A stretch of DNA of 64,000 bases from positions 301 to 64,300 of the forward strand of contig CAMVRN010000006.1 of the NCBI GenBank assembly GCA_947169915.1, read 5' to 3'. Below are positions 481 through 63,012 of this stretch, piece by piece. How positions within the stretch are numbered: position 1 is the first letter of the stretch; the number at the start of each line of letters is the position of its first letter. The notes beneath the pieces are model-generated. The model searched no databases. It saw nothing but the letters and a program-made list of their open reading frames with translations, and was not told the DNA's origin. Made by a program: the position numbers and the translations under genes. This DNA comes from an uncultured Candidatus Saccharibacteria bacterium (GTDB lineage: Bacteria > Patescibacteriota > Saccharimonadia > Saccharimonadales > Saccharimonadaceae).

Positions 481-3081
481 TTATTCGATGACTGATAATT
501 CCCCTTTGAGACGTTCGATGAGGGCCTCTTTCTCTTCGATTCCTTTGCGAGTTTCTGCGACGAGATTGGCAGGGGCTTTTTCTACGTAGCGTGGGTTCAT
601 CATACGAGCGTTTAGGGCATCTAATTCCCTACCAACGGAAAGGATGCGTTCGGTGAGCTGTTCTTTGTAGGTTTTAACTATTTCTGCTGGCACGTCGAGA
701 TATACTTCTCGGCCGGAGAGAGCAAGGCGAATACCACGTGGCGTGCCGTCGGTTGGACCAATTTTGTCGGTTCTGGTCATGAACCGGACTAAGTCGGCGT
801 TATCGGCGATAAGTGCATCATCACCATAAAGCAAGCCAACGGAAATGCCTTTAACAGTGTCTTTAAGGCCCGCTAAGACCTTTCTGGCCTCTAGGACGGT
901 TAGCATAAGCCTTTCGAACTGTTCGGCGCTTATTGGGTCAAATTCGAGGCTTTCCGGCCAATTCTGATTGATAATCATGCCGTCTGTCCAGCTAAGGCTT
1001 TGCCAAATCGTTTCTGTAACAAATGGCATGAATGGGTGAGCGATTATAAGAATCTCTTCGAAAGTTTTCTTCAAAAGAGGGATGTTTTTCAAGAGTTTTT
1101 GGCTTTCTAGGAACCAATCGGCGTATTTATCCCAAATGGTGGAATAGACGAGTTCTACGGCTTCGGAGAAGCGGTAATCTTTCATGGCTTTTTCGATGGA
1201 TTCCCTGAGATTGTCAATTTCGCGGCAAATCCAATCTTCACCGAGATTGTTGGTTTCATAAGACCCGTCTTGCTTTTCGCTTTCTTCAACCCAGGAGTCG
1301 ATGAGGCGGGCAATGTTCCATAGTTTATTGCAGAGGTTACGGCCGGCCATGACGGAATCTTCTGAGAAGGCTTGGGCGAGGCCTGCAGAGCGACCGCGGA
1401 GAATGCCGAGACGGAAGGCGTCGGACCCGTATTTGGCGACGAGCTCCATTGGGTTAATGACGTTTCCTTTGGATTTGCTCATCTTTTTGCCGTGGCTATC
1501 TAGAACGAGGCCGTGGAGATAAACTTCTTTGAATGGAACTTCCTTGGTTACGTAAAGTCCCATCATAATCATGCGGGCGACCCAGGCGAAGAGGATATCT
1601 GCGCCAGTCTCCATGACGTTTAGAGGATAGAATGGAGAGCCGTGTTCTTCGGTCCAGTCGGTACAGACTATTGGCCAGTGGGAGCTAGAGAACCAGGTGT
1701 CAAAAGTGTCTTCGTCGCGGATGTATTTAACGCCGCCTACTTCGATTTCTGTAAGGTTGGTGCGAGTGTCGAAAATCCAATCAGGAACGTCGTCGAAGTT
1801 TGTGGAACCGGTTGCGGAAGAGAGGGTTGTTGATTTTTTGAACATCGGGATTGGGATTCCCCATGGAATTTGACGGGAGATGTTCCAGTCTTTTAGACCC
1901 TTAAGATAGTTGATAATGACGGATTTTTTAGAGGCGGGATAGAATTTTATCTCGTTTTTTTCGAGATGTTCGATAGCGACTTTAGCAAGTTTTTCTGTAT
2001 CGACAAACCATTGTTCCTTGAGGGTTGGTTCAATGATGGTTCCGCATTTGTAGCAGTGAGAAACGGCATGGGAGATTTCGTGAACGCCGAGAAGAAGCCC
2101 CTGGTCGGCAAGGTCTTTTAGGACTTTAGCGCGACACTCTTCAGTTGTGAGACCCGCATAGGATTCACCGGCGGTTTCGAGCATGCGCCCATCATCGCCA
2201 ATGACTCGAAGGTTTTCGAGATTATGACGTTTCCCTACTTCAAAGTCATCAAAATCGTGTGCTGGGGTGATTTTGACGGCGCCAGTACCGTATTCTGGGT
2301 CGGCGTGTTCATCGGCGATAACGGGGATTTCTCGGTCGGTTAGAGGGAGTTTTACTTTTGTTCCGATGATGTCTTTATAGCGTTCGTCTTCTGGATTGAC
2401 TGCAACAGCTTGGTCGCCAAAGAGAGTTTCTGGGCGAGTTGTTGATACGACGATATCTTTGCTGTAGCGAATATCCCAGAGATGACCCGGTTCATCAACA
2501 TGTTCGACTTCTATGTCTGCGAACGCGGTTTGGTGTTTTGGACAGTAATTAACGAGCTTTTCGCCACGATAAATCATTCCGTCGTTCCACATTTTTTCGA
2601 AGGTTTTATAGACGCGTGATACGACATTTTCATCTAGCGTAAAGGTTAAATCGTTCCAGGAACAGGATGCGCCAAGTGCGCGGACTTGAAGCTCCATATT
2701 TCCTCTTTGTTCTTGTACGAAATCCCAGACTTTTGCGTATAGTTCGTCTCGCGTATATTCGAAACGAGTGTGTCCTACGGCTTCGAGAGCGCGTTCATAA
2801 ACAACCCAGGTTTCAAAGCCTGCGTGGTCTGCTCCTGGGACGTACCAGGTATTGTTCCCTCTTAAACGATAATAACGGACGAGTGAGTCTTCGATTGCAA
2901 TAGTTAGACCATGACCGATATGGAGGTTGCCGTTGGCATTTGGGGGAGGCATAACGATGGAGTATTCCCCTGTTTTGCCCGCTTCTTGGGTACTTGTCGG
3001 ATTAAAAGCTCCAGAAGACTCCCATGCGTGATATATTTCGGCCTCAAATTTGTCTGGTTCGTAAGAAGAAGTGAATTTCAT
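481..3081 (-). CDS. valS: Valine--tRNA ligase
   Basis: 866 aa; PPPNANGNLHIGH (HIGH) and KMSKS motifs, DHAGFETW, C-terminal coiled-coil arm. Confidence 0.97.
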   Translation of the reverse strand: MKFTSSYEPDKFEAEIYHAWESSGAFNPTSTQEAGKTGEYSIVMPPPNANGNLHIGHGLTIAIEDSLVRYYRLRGNNTWYVPGADHAGFETWVVYERALEAVGHTRFEYTRDELYAKVWDFVQEQRGNMELQVRALGASCSWNDLTFTLDENVVSRVYKTFEKMWNDGMIYRGEKLVNYCPKHQTAFADIEVEHVDEPGHLWDIRYSKDIVVSTTRPETLFGDQAVAVNPEDERYKDIIGTKVKLPLTDREIPVIADEHADPEYGTGAVKITPAHDFDDFEVGKRHNLENLRVIGDDGRMLETAGESYAGLTTEECRAKVLKDLADQGLLLGVHEISHAVSHCYKCGTIIEPTLKEQWFVDTEKLAKVAIEHLEKNEIKFYPASKKSVIINYLKGLKDWNISRQIPWGIPIPMFKKSTTLSSATGSTNFDDVPDWIFDTRTNLTEIEVGGVKYIRDEDTFDTWFSSSHWPIVCTDWTEEHGSPFYPLNVMETGADILFAWVARMIMMGLYVTKEVPFKEVYLHGLVLDSHGKKMSKSKGNVINPMELVAKYGSDAFRLGILRGRSAGLAQAFSEDSVMAGRNLCNKLWNIARLIDSWVEESEKQDGSYETNNLGEDWICREIDNLRESIEKAMKDYRFSEAVELVYSTIWDKYADWFLESQKLLKNIPLLKKTFEEILIIAHPFMPFVTETIWQSLSWTDGMIINQNWPESLEFDPISAEQFERLMLTVLEARKVLAGLKDTVKGISVGLLYGDDALIADNADLVRFMTRTDKIGPTDGTPRGIRLALSGREVYLDVPAEIVKTYKEQLTERILSVGRELDALNARMMNPRYVEKAPANLVAETRKGIEEKEALIERLKGELSVIE

Positions 3082-3110
3082 AAGATTATTATAACACGAT
3101 TAACAGAGGA

Positions 3111-4858: not shown

Positions 4859-5821
4859 TTAATGTTTGATTTTGCGGATTTTTCGATTAACATTTCTGAG
4901 GACTTTATAGAGACTGTACTTTTTCTTATCAATAACGAGGTCGTAGGTGCCGGTATAGTCGCGTTCGAAACCGCCGAAGGATTTCTTGTATTGGGTAAAA
5001 CCGTACCAAGGGTGATTTTTGTCTTCACTGGTTGTAATGCCCCAGAAATCGTAGTATTTTTTGCCTTCAGCTTTCGCATCGAGAATCATCTGGATAAGGA
5101 TTATGGTGCCGGCCATGAGATTGCGGTGTTCGAAGTCGGTTGCTGCATGCATATAGAAGCGAGTGTCTTCCGAATCGTAGATTAGAGCGGCGGCAATTGG
5201 AGCTTTTTTCTCATTTTCGGTTTCAAGTTCGGCAATATACAGAGTGGCAAATCCAGTTTTGAGCTGGTTTTTCAAATGGGATTCGGTTTGTGGGTTGAAA
5301 TTGTCTTTTTCGCCAAGGGTTTTTAGGAACGTGGTAAGGATTGTGATTTCCTCGGGATTTTGAGACTTTCTTAAGGTGACGCCTTTTTTAGCAGCATTTC
5401 GCCAGTAGCGAACTTTTCTCGATTCCATGCCTTTGAGAATTTCTTCTTCGGTTTTGTCATCAAGTTGGAGAATCCAGGTGTGTGCTGGGTCAATATCTTT
5501 CGATTTTACTAGGCCAATTTTTTTCAGAGTTTCTTCAGGGAAGGGAACTGTCGGTTCGAGACGAATGAAGAAGCAATTTTCCGCGTGGGCACGAGTTTTG
5601 AGAGAATCAAGGGCGCGCTTTAGAGAATTTAGAGCAACTTTTTTGTCTTTTTTGTCCTCTTTTAGGGATGGACCGTAGGGGATATTGAGGTATGGGCCCA
5701 TTTTTGTGTCGTTTTTAACAGCGAGGTAAGAGTAGTCGGATTCGGATTCGAAAAATGTTTTGTGGCCTTCGAGTTCTTCGTAAGCTTGCCATTCTTTAGT
5801 TTGGAGAAAGTGTTTAAACAT
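4859..5821 (-). CDS. FemABX/MurM-family peptidoglycan bridge aminoacyltransferase (GNAT fold)
   Basis: HFLQTKEW start, YDFWGI and GFTQYKKSFGG motifs. Start reassigned to 5821 (MFKHFLQ), 6 nt after TGcTATAAT; the 47-codon upstream extension runs through a terminator. Confidence 0.85.
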   Translation of the reverse strand: MFKHFLQTKEWQAYEELEGHKTFFESESDYSYLAVKNDTKMGPYLNIPYGPSLKEDKKDKKVALNSLKRALDSLKTRAHAENCFFIRLEPTVPFPEETLKKIGLVKSKDIDPAHTWILQLDDKTEEEILKGMESRKVRYWRNAAKKGVTLRKSQNPEEITILTTFLKTLGEKDNFNPQTESHLKNQLKTGFATLYIAELETENEKKAPIAAALIYDSEDTRFYMHAATDFEHRNLMAGTIILIQMILDAKAEGKKYYDFWGITTSEDKNHPWYGFTQYKKSFGGFERDYTGTYDLVIDKKKYSLYKVLRNVNRKIRKIKH

Positions 5822-5846
5822 GAATCCATTATAGCATATAGATAGG

Positions 5847-5874
5847 AAAAGGGCCCCGCTGGATTGCGGAGCCC
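5847..5874 (-). terminator. Intrinsic terminator on the minus strand closing the 5.85-6.43 kb unit
   Basis: Minus strand GGGCTCCGC-aatcca-GCGGGGCCC-TTTT; the stem closes only on this strand (one G-U pair). Confidence 0.7.
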
Positions 5875-6423
5875 CGATTGGGAAAATAGATTTATTTAGG
5901 AGGTAAACACTCGGGTAATGAGGTCTTTGAGAAACATGTTTCTCGGGGATTACCATGAACAAGAGTGAACTAGTCTGGGTTACAGTAGTCGTTTGATATT
6001 GCGTACTTGGACTCTCTGTACCTGATTGGACTTGGGTTTCGGTAAACGATGTCTAGGATAGTTCTGTGTGCGTGCACGTCTTGGTTTGTAGAGGTCGTGG
6101 CCACTTTGACCTGCTAAACTCGAAGGTTCGCAGAGCACAGGTTCGTTCCTTAAAGGGCGTTAATGTGGAGTTGCCAGATTGGGTAAAGTGGGTACCTTGC
6201 ATATTGTCATATACAGAGGTAGTTCGAAGAAAAACATTTTCTTCTATTACTTGTTACAACAAGAGATGCGGTTGCCTGCCTCAAGGACGAATACACGCGG
6301 TTTTTTGCGGTGCTGCCAGAGCTTCGAGGTTAAAACGTGCATTGGCGTCAGTAGCCCAATGGACTTCGCCTCCTTATCTATTCATTAATGAGCTACTTAG
6401 AAATCCTCCTTCCCTAAGTGATA
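5847..6423 (-). ncRNA. Candidate ~575-nt structured non-coding RNA of unknown family
   Basis: Strong promoter at one end and terminator at the other; no minus-strand ORF of 60 aa or more other than the unlikely femX extension; 13-bp long-range 5'/3' pairing and several internal hairpins. Confidence 0.4.
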
Positions 6424-6429
6424 GGGCTG

Positions 6430-6458
6430 ATTTTAGCACAGGGTATTTTAGGTGTCAA
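6430..6458 (-). promoter_or_regulatory. Sigma70 promoter driving the ORF-less minus-strand unit
   Basis: Minus strand TTGACA (6458-6453), 17 bp, TAAAAT (6435-6430) with extended -10 TG. Confidence 0.8.
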
Positions 6459-6464
6459 TAGGGT

Positions 6465-7526
6465 TTAGATGATTTCGGAGCGGGGGGAGATATCTAGAGA
6501 ATATGGGTCGATGGGCTTGACGTCAGACTTGATTTCATAGTAACAGGCCATAGCGACCATGGCAGCATTGTCGCCGGAAAATTTTGGCTCCGGGAAGTGG
6601 ATTTTGAGGGTAGACCCAGCGAAAAAAATGCCCGCTAGGCGTCTTAATTCGGCGTTTGCACTCACTCCGCCTGCAAAGACGAGTGTCTTTACGTCTGGAT
6701 GCTCACGAAGCGCATGTGAGAGTTTTTCGAGCAAAATATCGATGGCGGTTTTTTGGAATGAGGCAGAAAAATCGGAAATTTGTTCCTTTGTGAGTAAGTT
6801 TTTGAGTTCATGGGATGGGAAGCTTATGTCTACTCCGCATTCTTTTTGTACGGCGCGAAGGACAGCGGTTTTTAGACCTGAGAAGGAAAAGTTTAATCCT
6901 TCGACGGTTGGATGCGGGAAGCGATACTTTTCTGAATTGCCAGATTTGGCGGACTGAGCTACAGATGGACCGCCTGGGTATGGAAGACCGAGGATTTTGG
7001 CAACTTTATCGAAGCATTCGCCGACTGCATCATCTAGCGTGGTGCCGATGATTTCGAAATGATTATGCTCGGGCATGTAGATAATCTGGGTATGTCCACC
7101 AGAAATGACAAGAGAAATAAGAGGAAACACAGGTGCTTCGTTTGTATCTAGCCAATTGCTATAGATATGGCTTTTGAGGTGGTGCACGGCGTAGAGGGGT
7201 TTATTTCGAAGAATAGCAAGAGTGCGGGCGGTTAAAGTGCCAATTAAAAGGCTTCCGAGCAGGCCGGGAGTGTGAGTAACGGCGATGTAATCGATTTTGT
7301 CCCAGTCGGACTCGCCATCCTTTAATAGATTCGCGTCTTGAAAAGCCTTGTCGATGACCGGAAGGATGGCTTCGAGATGGGAGCGAGCGGCGACCTCAGG
7401 GATGACTCCGCCATAGCTCTTGAAGATGTCGATTTGAGAGACAACGACATTCGAAAGAAGCTTGCCGTCTTCTAAAATGGAGGCGGCAGTTTCGTCACAA
7501 GATGATTCAATCCCAAGAATAATCAT
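6465..7526 (-). CDS. tsaD: tRNA N6-adenosine threonylcarbamoyltransferase
   Basis: ILGIESSCDET, YGGVIPEVAARSH, HHLKSH, SGGHT, FSFSGLKT, GGVSAN and DNAAM motifs. Confidence 0.96.
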   Translation of the reverse strand: MIILGIESSCDETAASILEDGKLLSNVVVSQIDIFKSYGGVIPEVAARSHLEAILPVIDKAFQDANLLKDGESDWDKIDYIAVTHTPGLLGSLLIGTLTARTLAILRNKPLYAVHHLKSHIYSNWLDTNEAPVFPLISLVISGGHTQIIYMPEHNHFEIIGTTLDDAVGECFDKVAKILGLPYPGGPSVAQSAKSGNSEKYRFPHPTVEGLNFSFSGLKTAVLRAVQKECGVDISFPSHELKNLLTKEQISDFSASFQKTAIDILLEKLSHALREHPDVKTLVFAGGVSANAELRRLAGIFFAGSTLKIHFPEPKFSGDNAAMVAMACYYEIKSDVKPIDPYSLDISPRSEII

Positions 7527-7550
7527 CTCTATATTATAACAGATTTTTAT

Positions 7551-8783
7551 CTATCCCCAAAACTTGAGAGAATTGATTGGGTTTTTGTGAGCGGCTTTTA
7601 ACGCTGGGTAGAGGCCGAAGATGAGGCCGGTGACGAGAGATACGCCGAAAGTTATTGCAACGATTTTAACGGAGATATATGGATTGAATGGGGTAATGAG
7701 ACAAAGGAGGAAGGACAGGCCATAGCCTAAGATTAGGCCGAGGATGCCGCCGAAGATGGAAAGAATGAGAGATTCGAAGAGGAATTGAAGCATGATGTTT
7801 GATGTGGTTGCGCCAATTGCCTTGCGGATGCCAATTTCGTGAGTGCGCTCTGCGACTGCGACAAGCATGATGTTCATGATGCCGATACCGCCGACTACTA
7901 GTGATATTCCTGCAACGACGGTGAGGATGCCAGAAATAATGTTGAATAGGGAGCCTGCTGGATGGGTGATTTCATCGCCAGCGAGGACGGTGAAATTTGT
8001 ATCGCCTGCCTTAGACACTTCGAGAGATTCGCGGATTTGTTTGGAAGTTTCTTTGAGCGTGTCGGTGTTTTCTGTGCGGACATTGATTTGTTGGATTTGG
8101 AGGGAATTGTCGATACTATTTAGGACAGAGGCACAGACAAAGAAGGTGTTGTCGAGGTCGATGTTGTTGAAATTGATAGGGTCGTTTATTTCGTTGAGAA
8201 CGCCGATAATAATGAAGCGCTTACCGAGAAGGGTGATGGTTTTTCCTACTGGTTCGGCAGTGCCAAAGAGAGTCCCAGCGAGTTTTTGACCGATGACTGC
8301 GGTTGGAGTTTCGGCATCTTCACGGAGAAATGCGCCGTTTTTAAGGCTGAGGTTTTGAATCTTGAAGAACTCAGCGTTTGTGCCGACGATAGTGGCGGAC
8401 GGAACTTCGTTGCCGGTTTCGCCTTTGAGGGTGTTTACAGAGACAGCGAGAGGTGCGACTGCGTCGACGCCTTCAACTTCTTCGATTGTTTTAACGTCTT
8501 TTAGGGCAAGATTGGATTTTAAGTATTGGGTTGAGGTTGTGAGTTCGTTTACGATAGAATCGACAGTGGAGAGGGTAGAGGTTGGACGGACGACGATGAG
8601 GTTAGAGCCGATTTGCTCAACTTGTTTGGAAACAAGCGTGGAAATGCTCCCCATGAGAGAGAGAATTAAGATGATGGAGGCAACGCCGATGGAAATGCCG
8701 AGACAGGTAAGGAAGGAGCGCGTGCGATTGCGTTTTATGGAGGTCTTGGCTAGGTCGTAATGTGTTCGTAGTAGTAAGGCCAT
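7551..8783 (-). CDS. MacB/FtsX-family ABC permease
   Basis: RSFLTCLGISIGVAS, GGIGIMNIMLVAVAERTHEIGIRKAIGA and GLIFGLYPA motifs. Confidence 0.9.
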   Translation of the reverse strand: MALLLRTHYDLAKTSIKRNRTRSFLTCLGISIGVASIILILSLMGSISTLVSKQVEQIGSNLIVVRPTSTLSTVDSIVNELTTSTQYLKSNLALKDVKTIEEVEGVDAVAPLAVSVNTLKGETGNEVPSATIVGTNAEFFKIQNLSLKNGAFLREDAETPTAVIGQKLAGTLFGTAEPVGKTITLLGKRFIIIGVLNEINDPINFNNIDLDNTFFVCASVLNSIDNSLQIQQINVRTENTDTLKETSKQIRESLEVSKAGDTNFTVLAGDEITHPAGSLFNIISGILTVVAGISLVVGGIGIMNIMLVAVAERTHEIGIRKAIGATTSNIMLQFLFESLILSIFGGILGLILGYGLSFLLCLITPFNPYISVKIVAITFGVSLVTGLIFGLYPALKAAHKNPINSLKFWG

Positions 8784-9601
8784 TATTTCTTGCTCCTTTT
8801 CTTTGATTTTTTGGCGGACTTTTTGCGGCTCTTGAAGATTTTCTTCGGAGTTTTGCGTTCGACTGGGACTGGAAGGTCGCTATCTTTGACGGTTTTGATG
8901 TCTTTGTCGATAGAACCATCGAGCATGTAGATTACGCGGGTGGCGTAGTGAGTGAGGTTCGGGTTGTGGGTAACCATGATGATAGTGTTGCCTTCGGAGT
9001 GAATGCGTTGGAGTTCTTCCATGACTACTAGAGAGGAGCGAGAATCAAGGTTACCAGTTGGCTCATCGGCTAGGATGATTTCTGGATGCGCAACAATGGC
9101 ACGGGCGATAGCGGCGCGCTGTTGTTGGCCGCCAGAGAGCTGGAATGGAAGATAGTATTCTTTTTCCTTCATATTGAAACGTGCAAGTGCTTCGGAAGCC
9201 TTAATTAGACGGCGGGTTTTGTGGTAGCCGGAATAAACAAGAGGTAGAGCAACGTTTTCAATGATTGAAAGGTTCGGAATTAGGTTGAAATTTTGGAAAA
9301 TGAAGCCAATTTTCTTCGCACGGAGACGTGCTTGACGTCGAGCCGGGATGCGATTGACTGGTTCGTCGTTTAGGAAATAGGTACCAGCAGAGGCGGTATC
9401 TAAAAGACCAATGATGTTTAAAAGGGTGGTCTTACCGCAACCGGATGGGCCCATTATCATGATAAATTCGCCACGTTTGACTTCAAGGTCAAAATTTTTA
9501 AGGGCGTATGATGTGGCGTCACCATAGCCGAAACGTTTGGAAAGACCCTCAAGTTTAATGATGGTCTCATTTATGTTGGGTTTATTATCTTCCTCGCTCA
9601 T
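8783..9601 (-). CDS. ABC ATP-binding subunit (MacB/LolD-like)
   Basis: Walker A GPSGCGKT, signature LSGGQQQR, Walker [13 protein letters not shown]-loop VTH. Confidence 0.93.
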
Positions 9602-9652
9602 TAATAATTATTATAAACAAAAAAACGTGTTTTTAAAGAGGGATTTTGGGAT

Positions 9653-10438
9653 TTATTTGTCTGGATTTGAAAGACGAATGGTTGTTGAAATTGTGGTCGA
9701 TTCGGAAGAGCCTGGCGGATACCAGCAAGTGCGGATATGAAAGTCGTAATATTCGGGCTTTGATGACTCATCAGAGGCGATGCCTGTTACCCAGATGCCT
9801 TGGGCTTTGGTGAGATATTCATAGTAAATGTTGTTAAGGCTGGAATCACTGAGGTCATCGTCGATGTCGTGAAGGTCATTTTTGACAAGATACTGCGTAT
9901 AAAGGAGACGAGGGTAGACGGGAGTTGGCTCGAGGATGGTCTGCATGGTGTTGTAGGCAGTGAGGTAGTTATGAACCATCATCCCACGACCAGTTCCGTT
10001 GAGCGGACTTAGACCGAGATTGATGACATAATCGGTGATAGCTTCGGTTGTGAGGCGTCGATTGTTGACGACGAAGGCTTTGTCTGGGAATGCATCGCTT
10101 TCGTATATTTCGTCGCATGTATAACCGTTATATTTCTCAAAGAAGTCTTCGGGGACTTCGCTGGGTTTATAGGTGTTAGATTTTAAGGCGTTCCAGACAC
10201 GGGTATAAATACTCGTTAAGGTGTTCTTTTCGGAATTATAGGCTTCACGAATGAAACGAAGACCTTCAGCTTGAGCGTCAATTTCATTTCGCGCCATGGA
10301 AATCTCTAGAGCTTTCTGGGCGTCGTATAGGCCGCGGTTCATAATGCCGATAGCACCGATGGCGACAAGACCAAAAATTCCTACGGCGAACATAACTTCG
10401 ATTAAGGTGTCGCCATGCTTGGATTTTGGTAGTTTCAT
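9653..10438 (-). CDS. Type IV pilin-like protein (minor pilin) with a class III signal peptide
   Basis: MKLPKSKHG|DTLIEVMFAVGIFGLVAIGAI: basic leader, Gly at -1, Glu at +5, hydrophobic helix. Confidence 0.8.
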   Translation of the reverse strand: MKLPKSKHGDTLIEVMFAVGIFGLVAIGAIGIMNRGLYDAQKALEISMARNEIDAQAEGLRFIREAYNSEKNTLTSIYTRVWNALKSNTYKPSEVPEDFFEKYNGYTCDEIYESDAFPDKAFVVNNRRLTTEAITDYVINLGLSPLNGTGRGMMVHNYLTAYNTMQTILEPTPVYPRLLYTQYLVKNDLHDIDDDLSDSSLNNIYYEYLTKAQGIWVTGIASDESSKPEYYDFHIRTCWYPPGSSESTTISTTIRLSNPDK

Positions 10439-11787: not shown

Positions 11788-11877
11788 GGAAGTGTGTCCG
11801 AGTGGTTTAAGGAGCACGCTTGGAAAGCGTGTGTACGGGCAACCGTACCGGAGGTTCGAATCCTCTCGCTTCCGCCA
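11788..11877 (+). tRNA. tRNA-Ser(GGA)
   Basis: Acceptor stem GGAAGTG/CGCTTCC, discriminator G plus encoded CCA, anticodon arm CACGC-TTGGAAA-GCGTG, long variable arm, T-loop GTTCGAATC; TGtTATACT promoter upstream. Confidence 0.97.
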
Positions 11878-61267: not shown

Positions 61268-62077
61268 ATGAAATTTATGTTTATTGTGTTTGGATGTTTG
61301 ATTGGGGCTGCGTTTGGTAGTTTTGCTTGCTGCCAAGCGTGGCGTATTCGATTGCGCGAGGAACAGAGGAAAGACCCGGGGAAAAGGTCTGTTTGTTTGT
61401 CTTGCGGGAAAAAATTGAAATGGTATGACAATATTCCAATCTTGAGTTGGATTATGCTGAAAGGAAAGTGCAGGAAATGCGGAAAACCGATTGGAAAAGC
61501 CGAGATATTTGCGGAATTATTTGGATGTGTAAGCTTTGGGGCAATTGTATGGAGTTTTTTGAAGGATATAAGTTTTGATGGAAGACTATTTGAGGCGATT
61601 TCTGAGGTAAATATTCCGGAAATGATTACTATACTTGCGGCGATGGTTGGACTGATGATAGTAGCCGTTTATGATGGGAAATGGGGAGAAATGCCAGTTT
61701 CCATACTGCTTTTTGCGATTATTATGGGTGGTATTTATGCGATGATTGGTTTGATTCAAAAAGGTTTTTCTCTGGAAAATATAATACAGGTTCTTGGTGC
61801 TGTTGGAATACTTGCTGGGATATACTATTTACTATACTTCTTTTCGAAAGAAAAACTGGTGGGGGGAGGGGATTGGATTCTTTGCGTTTGTCTAGGACTT
61901 TTGTTGTCAAATTGGCGTCTAGCCCTGATTGAGCTCTTTTTGTCGAATTTTATAGGGGCAGTAGTGATGCTCCCGATGAGACAGAAGAAAATAGCCTTTG
62001 GGCCATTTCTGGTTGTGGCGTTTGTGATAACTTTTGTGTTCAGAGATTATTTAGTTAGCGCTCTAATGATTGGCTAG
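61268..62077 (+). CDS. pilD: Prepilin peptidase/N-methyltransferase (A24)
   Basis: GAAFGSF, SVCLSC...KCRKC zinc cysteines, catalytic Asp motifs VYD and GGGD, AFGPFL. Confidence 0.9.
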   Translation: MKFMFIVFGCLIGAAFGSFACCQAWRIRLREEQRKDPGKRSVCLSCGKKLKWYDNIPILSWIMLKGKCRKCGKPIGKAEIFAELFGCVSFGAIVWSFLKDISFDGRLFEAISEVNIPEMITILAAMVGLMIVAVYDGKWGEMPVSILLFAIIMGGIYAMIGLIQKGFSLENIIQVLGAVGILAGIYYLLYFFSKEKLVGGGDWILCVCLGLLLSNWRLALIELFLSNFIGAVVMLPMRQKKIAFGPFLVVAFVITFVFRDYLVSALMIG

Positions 62078-63012
62078 CTTGTTTCGCTGTGATATTTTTC
62101 ATGGATTTCACGTAGGTGCGGGTCGGTAACGTGGGTGTATATTTGTGTAGTGCTAATGTTGGCGTGTCCAAGCATAGCCTGAACCGAGCGGAGGTCTGCG
62201 CCATTCATAAGTAGGTCGGTAGCAAAAGAATGCCTAAGAGTGTGAGGTGTAACATGTTTGGTGATGCCAGCGAGTTTAGTGTATTTTTCGATGATACGTT
62301 GAACTGAGCGTGGCGTGAGGCGGCGATAGTTACCGGATGTATCGACCGAATTGAGATTGCGAGAGTTGTTTAGAAAGAGAGCAGGAAGAGAATCATTGCG
62401 GACGGCCAGATAGTCTTTAGTAGCGCTAGCAGCGGATTCGCTAATGAACACGGGGCGGTCTTTCTTTCCTTTACCTCTGACGATAAATTCGCGACGTTCA
62501 AGATTAATGGAATCGCGATTGAGGTTGATTAATTCGGAAACGCGGAGCCCTCCAGAGAAGAGTAGTTCAATTATAGCTCGGTCGCGGAGACCTGATTCGG
62601 TATCTGTTGGAATTACGGATAGCAAATCCTCAACTTCGTCGTAATGAAGAAAGGTGACTTGTTTTTTGACGGCGCGAGGTAAATCTACAAGAGAAGGGTC
62701 GAGGGTTTTAATGCCTCGGCGAGTGAGATATTTAAGAAATCCACGGAGTGCTATGAGATGATAGGCTTGAGTTAGGGCAGAAAGGTTTTCATTTCGGACA
62801 TCGTTTGTATAGCGATTGAGACGAAGACGATACTTACGGAGAAGTTCGGAATCAATTTCTGAGGGTTTTATATCGTCTGATTCGAGGATTTCGGTGCAGA
62901 TTTCGTAAAAACGATAGAGGTAGAGCCGATAGTTTTCAATTGTTTTCTTTGAGCGGCCACGTTCGACTTCTAGATGTTCGAGAAAGTCATCTATTAGCTC
63001 ATTGATATTCAT
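62074..63012 (-). CDS. XerC/XerD-type tyrosine recombinase
   Basis: RDRAIIELLFSGGLRVSEL, GKGKKDR, TPHTLRHSFAT, MLGHANISTTQIYTH; XerC versus XerD not resolvable by eye. Confidence 0.93.
   Translation of the reverse strand: MNINELIDDFLEHLEVERGRSKKTIENYRLYLYRFYEICTEILESDDIKPSEIDSELLRKYRLRLNRYTNDVRNENLSALTQAYHLIALRGFLKYLTRRGIKTLDPSLVDLPRAVKKQVTFLHYDEVEDLLSVIPTDTESGLRDRAIIELLFSGGLRVSELINLNRDSINLERREFIVRGKGKKDRPVFISESAASATKDYLAVRNDSLPALFLNNSRNLNSVDTSGNYRRLTPRSVQRIIEKYTKLAGITKHVTPHTLRHSFATDLLMNGADLRSVQAMLGHANISTTQIYTHVTDPHLREIHEKYHSETS

Follow-up and report, generated by a model that had tools for sequence, protein, structure and literature searches.

A probable stand-alone gene for a large structured non-coding RNA between tsaD and femX in ruminant-gut Saccharibacteria

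Few classes of large (>400 nt) bacterial non-coding RNA are known (OLE, ROOL, GOLLD, HEARO, and raiA), and their functions are mostly open. OLE occurs in Bacillota and is genetically linked to oapA, oapB, and oapC. OLE, ROOL, and GOLLD were revealed in 2025 as RNA-only homo-oligomers; in the OLE dimer structure, switching of the L9.3 tetranucleotide among GGCC, GAUC, and AGCU was used to support a symmetric intermolecular kissing loop, and ROOL and GOLLD are RNA-only nanocages which self-assemble via kissing loops, ROOL having first been discovered in rumen samples (Kretsch et al. 2025; PMC12286853). Here we describe an unannotated structured RNA encoded between tsaD and femX in a 64,000-nt stretch of DNA (the window; positions 301 to 64,300 of contig CAMVRN010000006.1, assembly GCA_947169915.1) from an uncultured Candidatus Saccharibacteria bacterium. 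We put at roughly 80% the probability that this locus is a stand-alone gene for an abundant, independently transcribed, structured non-coding RNA with no match in Rfam 15 and none in the literature we searched. The RNA founds a small family that evolves fast and has eight members so far, all in ruminant-gut Saccharibacteria of one genus; it would work most like OLE, ROOL, and GOLLD, yet belongs to none of them. Specifically, i) it resembles OLE (RF01071) in its length of ~600 nt, ornate multi-helix fold, high expression, and stand-alone gene, but has no sequence or covariance-model match to OLE, and its host is one of the Patescibacteria rather than the Bacillota; and ii) like ROOL and GOLLD it is a large orphan RNA whose sequence evolves fast while its helices are kept, but it has no Rfam match, is not near tRNAs or prophage genes, and its oligomer is predicted from palindromic loops.

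The unit occupies the minus strand, as do all the features described below unless otherwise stated, and extends from a promoter at 6458-6430 to an intrinsic terminator at 5875-5850, ~575 nt apart. Both had been picked out in a sequence-only reading of the window, and both hold up. The promoter consists of a -35 TTGACA (6458-6453), a 17-nt spacer, TG (6438-6437), and a -10 TAAAAT (6435-6430), so that 11 of 12 consensus positions are matched with a TG extension (extended -10, TGcTAAAAT); the terminator has a 10-bp stem with 8 G-C pairs, the loop AAUCCA, and a T run. The promoter layout is the same in 7/7 homologs (TTGACA or TTGCAC, 17 nt, TGnTAAAAT or a near variant), and the terminator is present in all 7, with compensatory changes. 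The RNA (5847-6423, ~575 nt) would accordingly begin at about 6423 with a conserved UAUCA, 6-7 nt past the -10, and end in the terminator T run, both ends being placed by reference to the promoter and terminator. The gene is single-copy in the 770-kb genome.

The locus could be found in sheep, goat, and other gut metagenomes, and also in 2 metatranscriptomes (X3 and X9) from two studies. In X3, an rRNA-depleted RNA run, contigs cover 5920-6266 and 6237-6413 at word depths of 250 and 212; in X9, also an RNA run, they cover 5903-6053 and 6142-6292. Together the RNA-run contigs span 5903-6413 only, with tsaD and femX at depth zero; DNA run X1 spans the flanks along the whole stretch, and X2 spans parts of them. 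X3 coverage breaks off at a perfect palindrome, a kind of site at which de Bruijn assemblies often end. We infer the RNA strand from the promoter and terminator, with support from G-U pairs in two conserved helices described below, P1 (in genomes G008 and G247) and B9 (in G247 and G162), because these pairs would be A-C mismatches on the opposite strand. Strain variants between runs cluster in a hairpin at 6226-6244 that is not conserved (positions 6222-6234, with further sites at 6023 and 6092): X1 carries the substitutions 6222 G>T, 6228 A>G, and 6234 A>T together with an extra A following 6229, and X9 carries 6225 C>T, none of them compensatory. A 28-nt fold-back in an X3 contig at 6237-6264 is probably an assembly artifact at a hairpin.

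A BLASTN search of 369 genomes of the genus with the RNA gave partial matches in G247, G162, G008, and G157, and querying again with the G247 copy brought in G341, G160, and G364, so that 8/369 genomes carry the RNA, 7 homologs plus the present copy. All eight copies lie between tsaD and femX, with the same promoter layout and a terminator, and range from 420 to 707 nt in length; the named homolog records are ruminant-gut 'Candidatus Saccharibacteria' metagenome-assembled genomes (MAGs) from sheep jejunum, sheep ileum, and buffalo rumen. We were unable to extend the family further. A covariance model (R1) was built from sequence alone on the 5′ 86 nt of the RNA. Across 150 genomes representing 95 other genera in the family it detected no copy; in 150 genomes of the genus it recovered known members and two chance-level matches but nothing else convincing; and, with filters off, it detected no member among 25 other femX loci. 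Nor did exact-pattern scans for the junction motif of the RNA (GGAGGAAGUCCAUUGGGCUAC) help: a first pattern found nothing in the genome collection, a second found four known genomes plus chance matches in Solibacteraceae, Oribacterium, and Azospira only, and all nine matches in JGI metagenomes were 20-22-nt chance matches. One of the chance-level R1 matches (E = 0.0045 per genome, 150 genomes searched) lies away from tsaD and femX, on the plus strand at ~1515-1750 of G195:C8 (L101), where an unrelated 70-amino acid (aa) open reading frame (ORF) begins MGYLEEM and the stretch from its Shine-Dalgarno (SD) sequence to the start codon, GGAGGAAUUCCAAUGGGAUAU, resembles the junction motif.

The tsaD-femX site itself is hypervariable, with a spacer of only 42-90 nt in G024, G032, and G073 and unrelated inserts of 0.5-1.3 kb elsewhere in the genus. 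The genomes that carry the RNA group together in a TsaD tree (3 changes; 23/500 shuffles as low), and G019, which carries an unrelated insert, is nested among them; because of this clustering and the hypervariability of the site, we take the RNA to be lineage-restricted, with several losses or replacements in its history. At this hotspot, small transcription units are gained and replaced. Unrelated inserts occupy the tsaD-femX spacers of G019, G035, G075, G081, G082, and G067 (L013, L015, L017, L019, L026, and L031); several are equipped with a promoter and terminator of their own, and frames of 70-160 codons preceded by an SD occur in some. We considered whether these inserts are homologous to the RNA, as 10-14-mers shared by eye might suggest, and rejected the idea, BLASTN, nhmmer, and R1 all being null. 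The 1.1-kb spacer of G008 (L011, G008:C12) contains two more promoter-to-terminator units downstream of the RNA homolog, at ~530-720 and 780-960 on the minus strand, each ~130-190 nt long, running from an extended -10 promoter of consensus sequence to a terminator rich in G+C, and without any Rfam match.

The first ~85 nt of the eight sequences align well and are the most conserved part of the RNA (73-93% identity between members), but the body is mostly unalignable end to end and was aligned in blocks; the helices were accordingly assessed block by block and not from one established full-length consensus fold. The 594-nt stretch containing the RNA has a minimum free energy (MFE) of -154.1 kcal/mol compared with -136.7 ± 6.5 kcal/mol for dinucleotide shuffles (z = -2.66, 1/100 shuffles as good), and RNAalifold reports 16 pairs with both sides changed. 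Long-range helices were tested by comparing the duplex energy of the two strands from the same sequence with that of strands swapped between sequences (20000 permutations), the strand windows being placed by landmarks and not by complementarity. Two long-range helices pass, and a local hairpin is supported by its own controls. The end-to-end helix P1, which the sequence-only reading had predicted at just these positions, joins AAUAGAU-A-AGGAGG (6369-6382), containing the second of two SD-like motifs, to CCUCCU-AAAUAA-AUCUAUU (5885-5903), closes ~465 nt, and forms part of the MFE fold; its cognate energy in 8 sequences is -13.2 kcal/mol versus -10.9 kcal/mol when permuted, and only 5/20000 permutations reach the cognate score. 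The inner part of P1 is UAGGAG/CUCCUA, and both sides of the outer part have changed from AAUAGAU/AUCUAUU here to AUAGUUAGG/CCUAACUAU in G162, CUGAA/UUCAG in G157, and UGAAUAGGAG/CUCCUAUUCA in G364. The second long-range helix, P-LR, pairs CUCGAAG (6322-6328) with CUUCGAG (6119-6125), replaced by ACUUGGCG and CGCCAAGU in most other copies and by UUAGCG/CGCUAA in G160; cognate and permuted energies are -13.2 and -9.75 kcal/mol (37/20000, or 216/20000 without the sequence from the window), and RNAalifold predicts the same helix.

The third helix, hairpin B9 (5929-5944), is a 16-nt perfect palindrome, GAGAAA-CAUG-UUUCUC, in which 6 bp enclose a self-complementary 4-nt loop; 56/56 cells are paired, both sides have changed at 7/8 pairs, and 0/500 shuffles reach the score, whereas slid controls are 45-59% paired. 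An alternative suggested by RNAalifold, in which the junction motif pairs with the 5′ half of B9, was rejected, as it is impossible in the window's sequence and conflicts with the fully supported hairpin. A further hairpin at 6092-6112 has the stem AGGUC/GACCU and is the counterpart of a hairpin with the stem GGUGG/CCGCC, GGUGG/CCACC, or GGUAG/CUACC in other copies. Helix P-y (6148-6286), joining CCUUGAGG (6286-6279) to CCUUUAAGG (6156-6148), pairs in 6/7 sequences without reaching significance in the permutation test. Enclosed within it is a lineage-specific insert, without counterpart in the homologs, which contains the hairpins at 6198-6263. The hairpins enumerated in the sequence-only reading therefore fare unequally: all exist where they were placed, and the 16-nt palindrome covaries, but CAUUGG/CCAAUG and the three at 6198-6263 fall in segments that are wholly different in the homologs. 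Three findings had been set down beforehand as counting against a structured RNA, namely no discrete transcript, an intact ORF in the homologs, and no covariation; each was looked for, and none was found. What the homolog collection and covariation analysis proposed at the outset have delivered is seven relatives and covariation in P1, P-LR, and B9. The locus shows what an independent non-coding RNA gene should: a dedicated promoter and terminator, a discrete transcript (its strand and ends being read from the promoter and terminator), covarying helices, and no conserved ORF; the existence of an unannotated structured RNA is thus borne out, though for a narrow family.

The loops of these hairpins suggest how such an RNA might associate with itself. 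The B9 loops are GAUC, GAUC, GGCC, GGCC, GGUC, AAUU, and CAUG, self-complementary throughout although both loop positions vary: loop position 13-16 is GC in 5 sequences, AU in 1, and CG in 1, and position 14-15 is AU in 4, GC in 2, and GU in 1, so that 14/14 cells are complementary. Adjacent loop bases thus covary and stay palindromic, the pattern expected of a symmetric kissing loop, and as they cannot pair within one chain, they suggest symmetric contacts from chain to chain. The OLE loop L9.3 and the B9 loop switch in the same way between palindromes, GGCC/GAUC/AGCU in the one and GAUC/GGCC/GGUC/AAUU/CAUG in the other (PMC12286853). A second loop, that of the GGUGG hairpin, likewise varies among palindromes, GCGCGC in three genomes, UAGCGCUA, and in the window the 8-nt GUGGCCAC at 6104-6097. 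There is a third palindromic stretch, UGUCGCGACA, AGUCGCGACU, or (G)ACCGCGG(CC) depending on the copy, and a fourth of the form AGG-NN-CCU (AGGAUCCU, AGGUACCU, GGUACC, GGCGCC). Palindromes of at least 8 nt are enriched relative to dinucleotide shuffles in 4/8 members (P≤0.007; 9 versus 2.25 in G247). The HIV-1 dimerization initiation site displays a palindromic GCGCGC or GUGCAC in a hairpin loop, and the GGUGG-hairpin loop is similar in that different palindromes (GCGCGC, UAGCGCUA, or GUGGCCAC) occupy one position, but belongs to a bacterial chromosomal RNA whose dimer is only predicted. Judging from these loops, the chance that the RNA binds copies of itself is nearly even, if a little short of it; a folded particle would do so through the B9 loop, the GGUGG-hairpin loop, UGUCGCGACA, and AGG-NN-CCU.

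The conserved 5′ head adds signals of another kind. The UAUCA at the presumed 5′ end runs directly into a terminal hairpin, P0 (6396-6418; stem CUUAGGGA/UUUCUAAG, SD-like loop AGGAGGA), which forms in 8/8 sequences at -4.3 to -9.5 kcal/mol and still pairs here although the stem differs from the UUGAGAA/UUCUCGG of relatives; permutation is not significant (1842/20000) because the strands are mostly conserved. In relatives GAAAGGAGG(G) is exposed in the P0 loop, and the motif is not followed by a start codon; this first SD-like motif is GAAAGGAGG in 5/8 members, GGAAGGAGG here, and GAAAGGGGG in two. The loop motif is the complement of the usual 3′ end of 16S rRNA. AGGAGG occurs only 4 times on the minus strand of the window, two of them within the RNA. 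(The window is strongly asymmetric, with 27 AGGAGG on the plus strand and 4 on the minus strand versus 26.9 and 3.5 expected from base composition, and its long ORFs are mostly on the plus strand.) A second GGAGG lies ~30 nt downstream of the first and is followed at 6-9 nt by a start codon, UUG in seven copies and GUG in G160, and by an in-frame stop in 8/8, after 2 codons in G364 and 3 in the others; in the window this mini-frame, UUG GGC UAC UGA (6348-6359), starts 9 nt past GGAGG and overlaps the most conserved stretch, GAAGUCCAUUGGGCUAC. The sequence-only reading had also drawn attention to SD-like motifs near the 5′ end and an anti-SD near the 3′ end; the motifs are present, but AGGAGG and CCUCCU pair with each other as the closing helix and are not free. 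The second SD is thus half buried in P1, and the start codon of the mini-frame lies within a tentative helix, P-a (6350-6397; GUAGUCC/GGGCUAC), which joins AGUAGCUCA (6397-6389) to UGGGCUACU (6358-6350). P-a has 8-9 bp in 6/8 sequences, including G341 with GUUG/CAAC in place of GUAG/CUAC, but is missing in G162 and G364 and is not significant by permutation (1498/20000). As P-a encloses the 5′ strand of P1, the two would form either a pseudoknot or alternative states of a switch. A genome scan for other heads with an SD and mini-ORF found one candidate, on contig 4, which is not a clean RNA gene.

A 5′ SD-like motif of this sort has a counterpart in STAB-SD, the 5′ stabilizer of the Bacillus thuringiensis cryIIIA mRNA with the sequence GAAAGGAGG, reportedly described by Agaisse and Lereclus in 1996. 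The likeness lies in an SD-like motif near the 5′ end without a properly spaced start, nine bases being identical in 5/8 members (GGAAGGAGGA here); the differences are that the motif of the tsaD-femX RNA sits in the loop of a 5′-terminal hairpin of a non-coding RNA, and that any stabilizing effect is putative. The first SD may stabilize the RNA in the manner of STAB-SD. To our knowledge OLE has no counterpart to such an SD-like head. A conserved head would be expected to meet a conserved partner, most plausibly the 30S subunit, and we regard ribosome engagement at the head as a tentative idea with the odds clearly against it. A bolder combination of these elements would give the Candidate Phyla Radiation its first large quaternary assembly made of RNA alone, a dimer or higher oligomer held together by two to four symmetric contacts, kissing or duplex, and tethered as a particle to the 30S subunit by a ribosome-binding head made up of a STAB-SD-like loop and a masked 3-codon minigene; we consider it doubtful.

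The head could instead be the point of the whole RNA. The two- or three-codon minigenes of phage lambda bar have, like the mini-frame, an SD, a start, one or two sense codons, and a stop; the tsaD-femX unit differs in being embedded and partly paired within a large conserved fold, and its translation is putative, as is any toxicity. If the second SD and UUG GGC UAC UGA were the core and were read by ribosomes, with the large fold as a gate in which P1 masks the SD and P-a the start, then the mode of action would be ribosome engagement (for instance peptidyl-tRNA drop-off, ribosome loading, or a sensing switch) and not that of an RNA-only particle. The layout of SD, start, and early in-frame stop is conserved in 8/8 members, the frame persists in G162 and G364 where P-a fails to form, and the crossing of P-a and P1 would permit a switch. 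Against this, no part of the RNA is more conserved than this stretch, so that start and stop would be kept without any need for translation, and P-a accounts for part of the conservation; codon 3 has a single informative change (UAC to AAC in G341), and its compensation in P-a is a constraint at the RNA level; and the peptide varies (MGY, MGH, MGN, MF). We consider a translated minigene core improbable on balance but far from negligible, and it is compatible with our preferred explanation of a stand-alone structured RNA.

Much less probable is that the RNA is a long cis-acting leader or attenuator of femX with a regulated terminator. The neighbors of the RNA gene are tsaD (upstream, 6465-7526; Pfam TsaD, 2.9e-84), an FtsX/MacB permease, and femX (downstream, 4859-5821; FemAB family, Pfam 2.8e-24), and in 8/8 genomes the RNA lies immediately upstream of femX on the same strand, just as a leader should. 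But past the strong terminator femX has a promoter and a leaderless start to itself (5819-5836; TGcTATAAT at 5836-5828, 6 nt, ATG at 5821-5819), which lie outside the RNA and set its downstream limit; this arrangement is identical in relatives with and without the RNA, including those with 42-90-nt spacers; the RNA contigs end ahead of femX; and the similar RNAs of G247 and G157 precede femX types that are only ~45% identical. As to these femX types, a comparison of the femX gene of the window (4859-5821) with loci L042, L045, L069, L090, L094, and L095 showed FemX to be 72-75% identical to that of the window in G247, G341, and G019 but 41-45% in G157, G160, G162, G008, and G364, which suggests recombination or paralog exchange at the RNA-femX boundary. 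There are 3 FemAB-family matches in the genome, two besides femX, one of these being C5:46104-47057 with 30% identity. Leaderless starts (TGnTATAAT, 6-8 nt, ATG) are usual for operon-first genes in the window, with femX and tsaD among them, as well as the ORFs at 8783-9601, 9653-10438, 481-3081, and 62074-63012 and several plus-strand genes; the sites lie at 5819-5836, 7527-7545, 9602-9620, and 3082-3100, and before many plus-strand genes. Operon-internal genes use AGGAGG-type SDs.

Nor do we find it at all likely that a small-protein gene, decayed or evolving fast, occupies the locus, or that the RNA has a dual function and codes for a peptide longer than the mini-frame. Open frames of 100-128 codons do occur in G247, G162, and G157, and unrelated inserts at the same site (L013, L017, and L031) carry frames of 70-136 codons behind an SD. 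However, no ORF is shared among the 8 copies on either strand, the open frames differing in position, frame, and length; peptide similarities between copies arise in all three frames and simply track nucleotide identity, homologous segments lying in different frames; compensatory base-pair changes would be unexpected in a pseudogene; and Pfam is null. In the window, the longest internal minus-strand ATG ORF is 49 aa (6053-6202), exactly as the sequence-only reading had it if an upstream extension of the femX frame is set aside; the longest stop-to-stop frame, with the same proviso, is ~66-69 codons, genetic code 25 opens no longer minus-strand frame in the RNA interval, and G008 has no frame longer than 44 codons. 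An antisense frame of 131 codons is specific to this genome, the longest antisense frame in G008 being 42 codons.

We rate a very divergent copy of an already catalogued RNA (RNase P, tmRNA, signal recognition particle (SRP), 6S, OLE, ROOL, GOLLD, raiA, or T-box) as least probable of all, because the resemblance of GGAGGAAGUCCAUUGGGCU to the RNase P motif GAGGAAAGUCCGGGCU and of GGUGGACC to the T-box core, a size equal to that of OLE and ROOL, and the failure to detect an SRP RNA or 6S RNA in the genome are outweighed by the null Rfam comparisons described next, by the location of RNase P RNA and tmRNA elsewhere, by the expectation that an essential RNA would not be restricted to 8/369 genomes, and by the lack of Ffh and FtsY, without which no SRP RNA is expected. 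Rfam 15, which includes OLE RF01071, ROOL, GOLLD, raiA, HEARO, RNase P, tmRNA, SRP, 6S, and T-box, gave as its sole match in the whole window at the gathering threshold a tRNA at 11788; region 5700-6600 (900 nt) at E≤10 with lax filters gave four chance-level matches to unrelated families; and the 7 homolog loci at E≤1 gave no match within the RNA. The covariance search proposed at the outset thus places neither the RNA nor its homologs in any family, and the suspicion that this is not RNase P RNA or tmRNA proved right, both being on contig 10 (C10:15323-15682, 219.5 bits, and C10:18799-19155, 77.4 bits) and the SRP models being without a match. Three further candidates were tried and rejected or came up empty: a CsrA sponge of the CsrB/RsmZ type, as the genome has no CsrA (PF02599) and the GGA motifs are few; the missing SRP RNA, as Ffh and FtsY are missing too, relatives likewise have no SRP RNA match, and the RNA is too rare; and a trans antisense target, as a short-word BLAST search of the whole genome with the RNA turned up chance-level matches only, the best antisense match to the junction motif sitting within a protein-coding gene.

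The SRP itself deserves a separate remark. In the present genome (G000, 96% complete) neither the small nor the large SRP RNA model has a match, and the same holds for the Ffh M domain (PF02978) and the SRP54-type GTPase (PF00448), the last of which covers both Ffh and FtsY. The SRP RNA model matched 0/26 genomes (this one and 25 relatives from 11 genera of the order), and PF00448 was above cut-off in 1/21 genomes, on a short contig from a MAG that is 76% complete and 3% contaminated; in 14 control genomes the SRP RNA model matched 12, and PF00448 and PF02978 each matched 14. It looks like the SRP has been lost across the lineage or has become extremely divergent.

We wish to stress what weighs against the conclusion that the tsaD-femX unit is an independent structured RNA, and against the assembly proposed for it. 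The count of promoter-like and terminator-like sites in the region is at chance level, though this particular pair is kept in 7/7 homologs and the intervening RNA is present in metatranscriptomes; the RNA-run contigs carry no strand information or mapped ends, and the final ~55-70 nt ahead of the terminator are uncovered in X3; the alignment has only 8 sequences, of which G247, G157, and G341 are close to each other, so that statistical power is low; and four helices seen in most copies, P0, P-a, P-x, and P-y, fail the permutation test. As for self-association, palindromes are not enriched in the window's own copy (4 versus 1.8, P = 0.11), the counterpart of the UGUCGCGACA element in the window was picked by eye, and a perfect palindrome can be read as a plain hairpin. 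As for the head, the 16S gene is unassembled in this genome and 5 relatives, so that complementarity to the anti-SD is presumed from the usual 16S 3′ end. Finally, the patchy distribution argues that the RNA is dispensable, since close relatives manage with a 42-nt spacer or an unrelated 520-nt insert.

The tsaD-femX RNA adds to the few large bacterial classes a compact, highly expressed example from a distant lineage, the episymbiotic Saccharibacteria, in whose 0.77-Mb genomes retained non-coding kilobases are costly. Because its loops bear the same palindromic signature as those of the RNA-only oligomers, the self-assembly hypothesis is directly testable on an in vitro transcript. Its head unites a large fold with ribosome-binding signals and, if the assembly proposed above is real, an abundant particle of this kind could store or silence ribosomal subunits in ultra-small, ribosome-poor cells.

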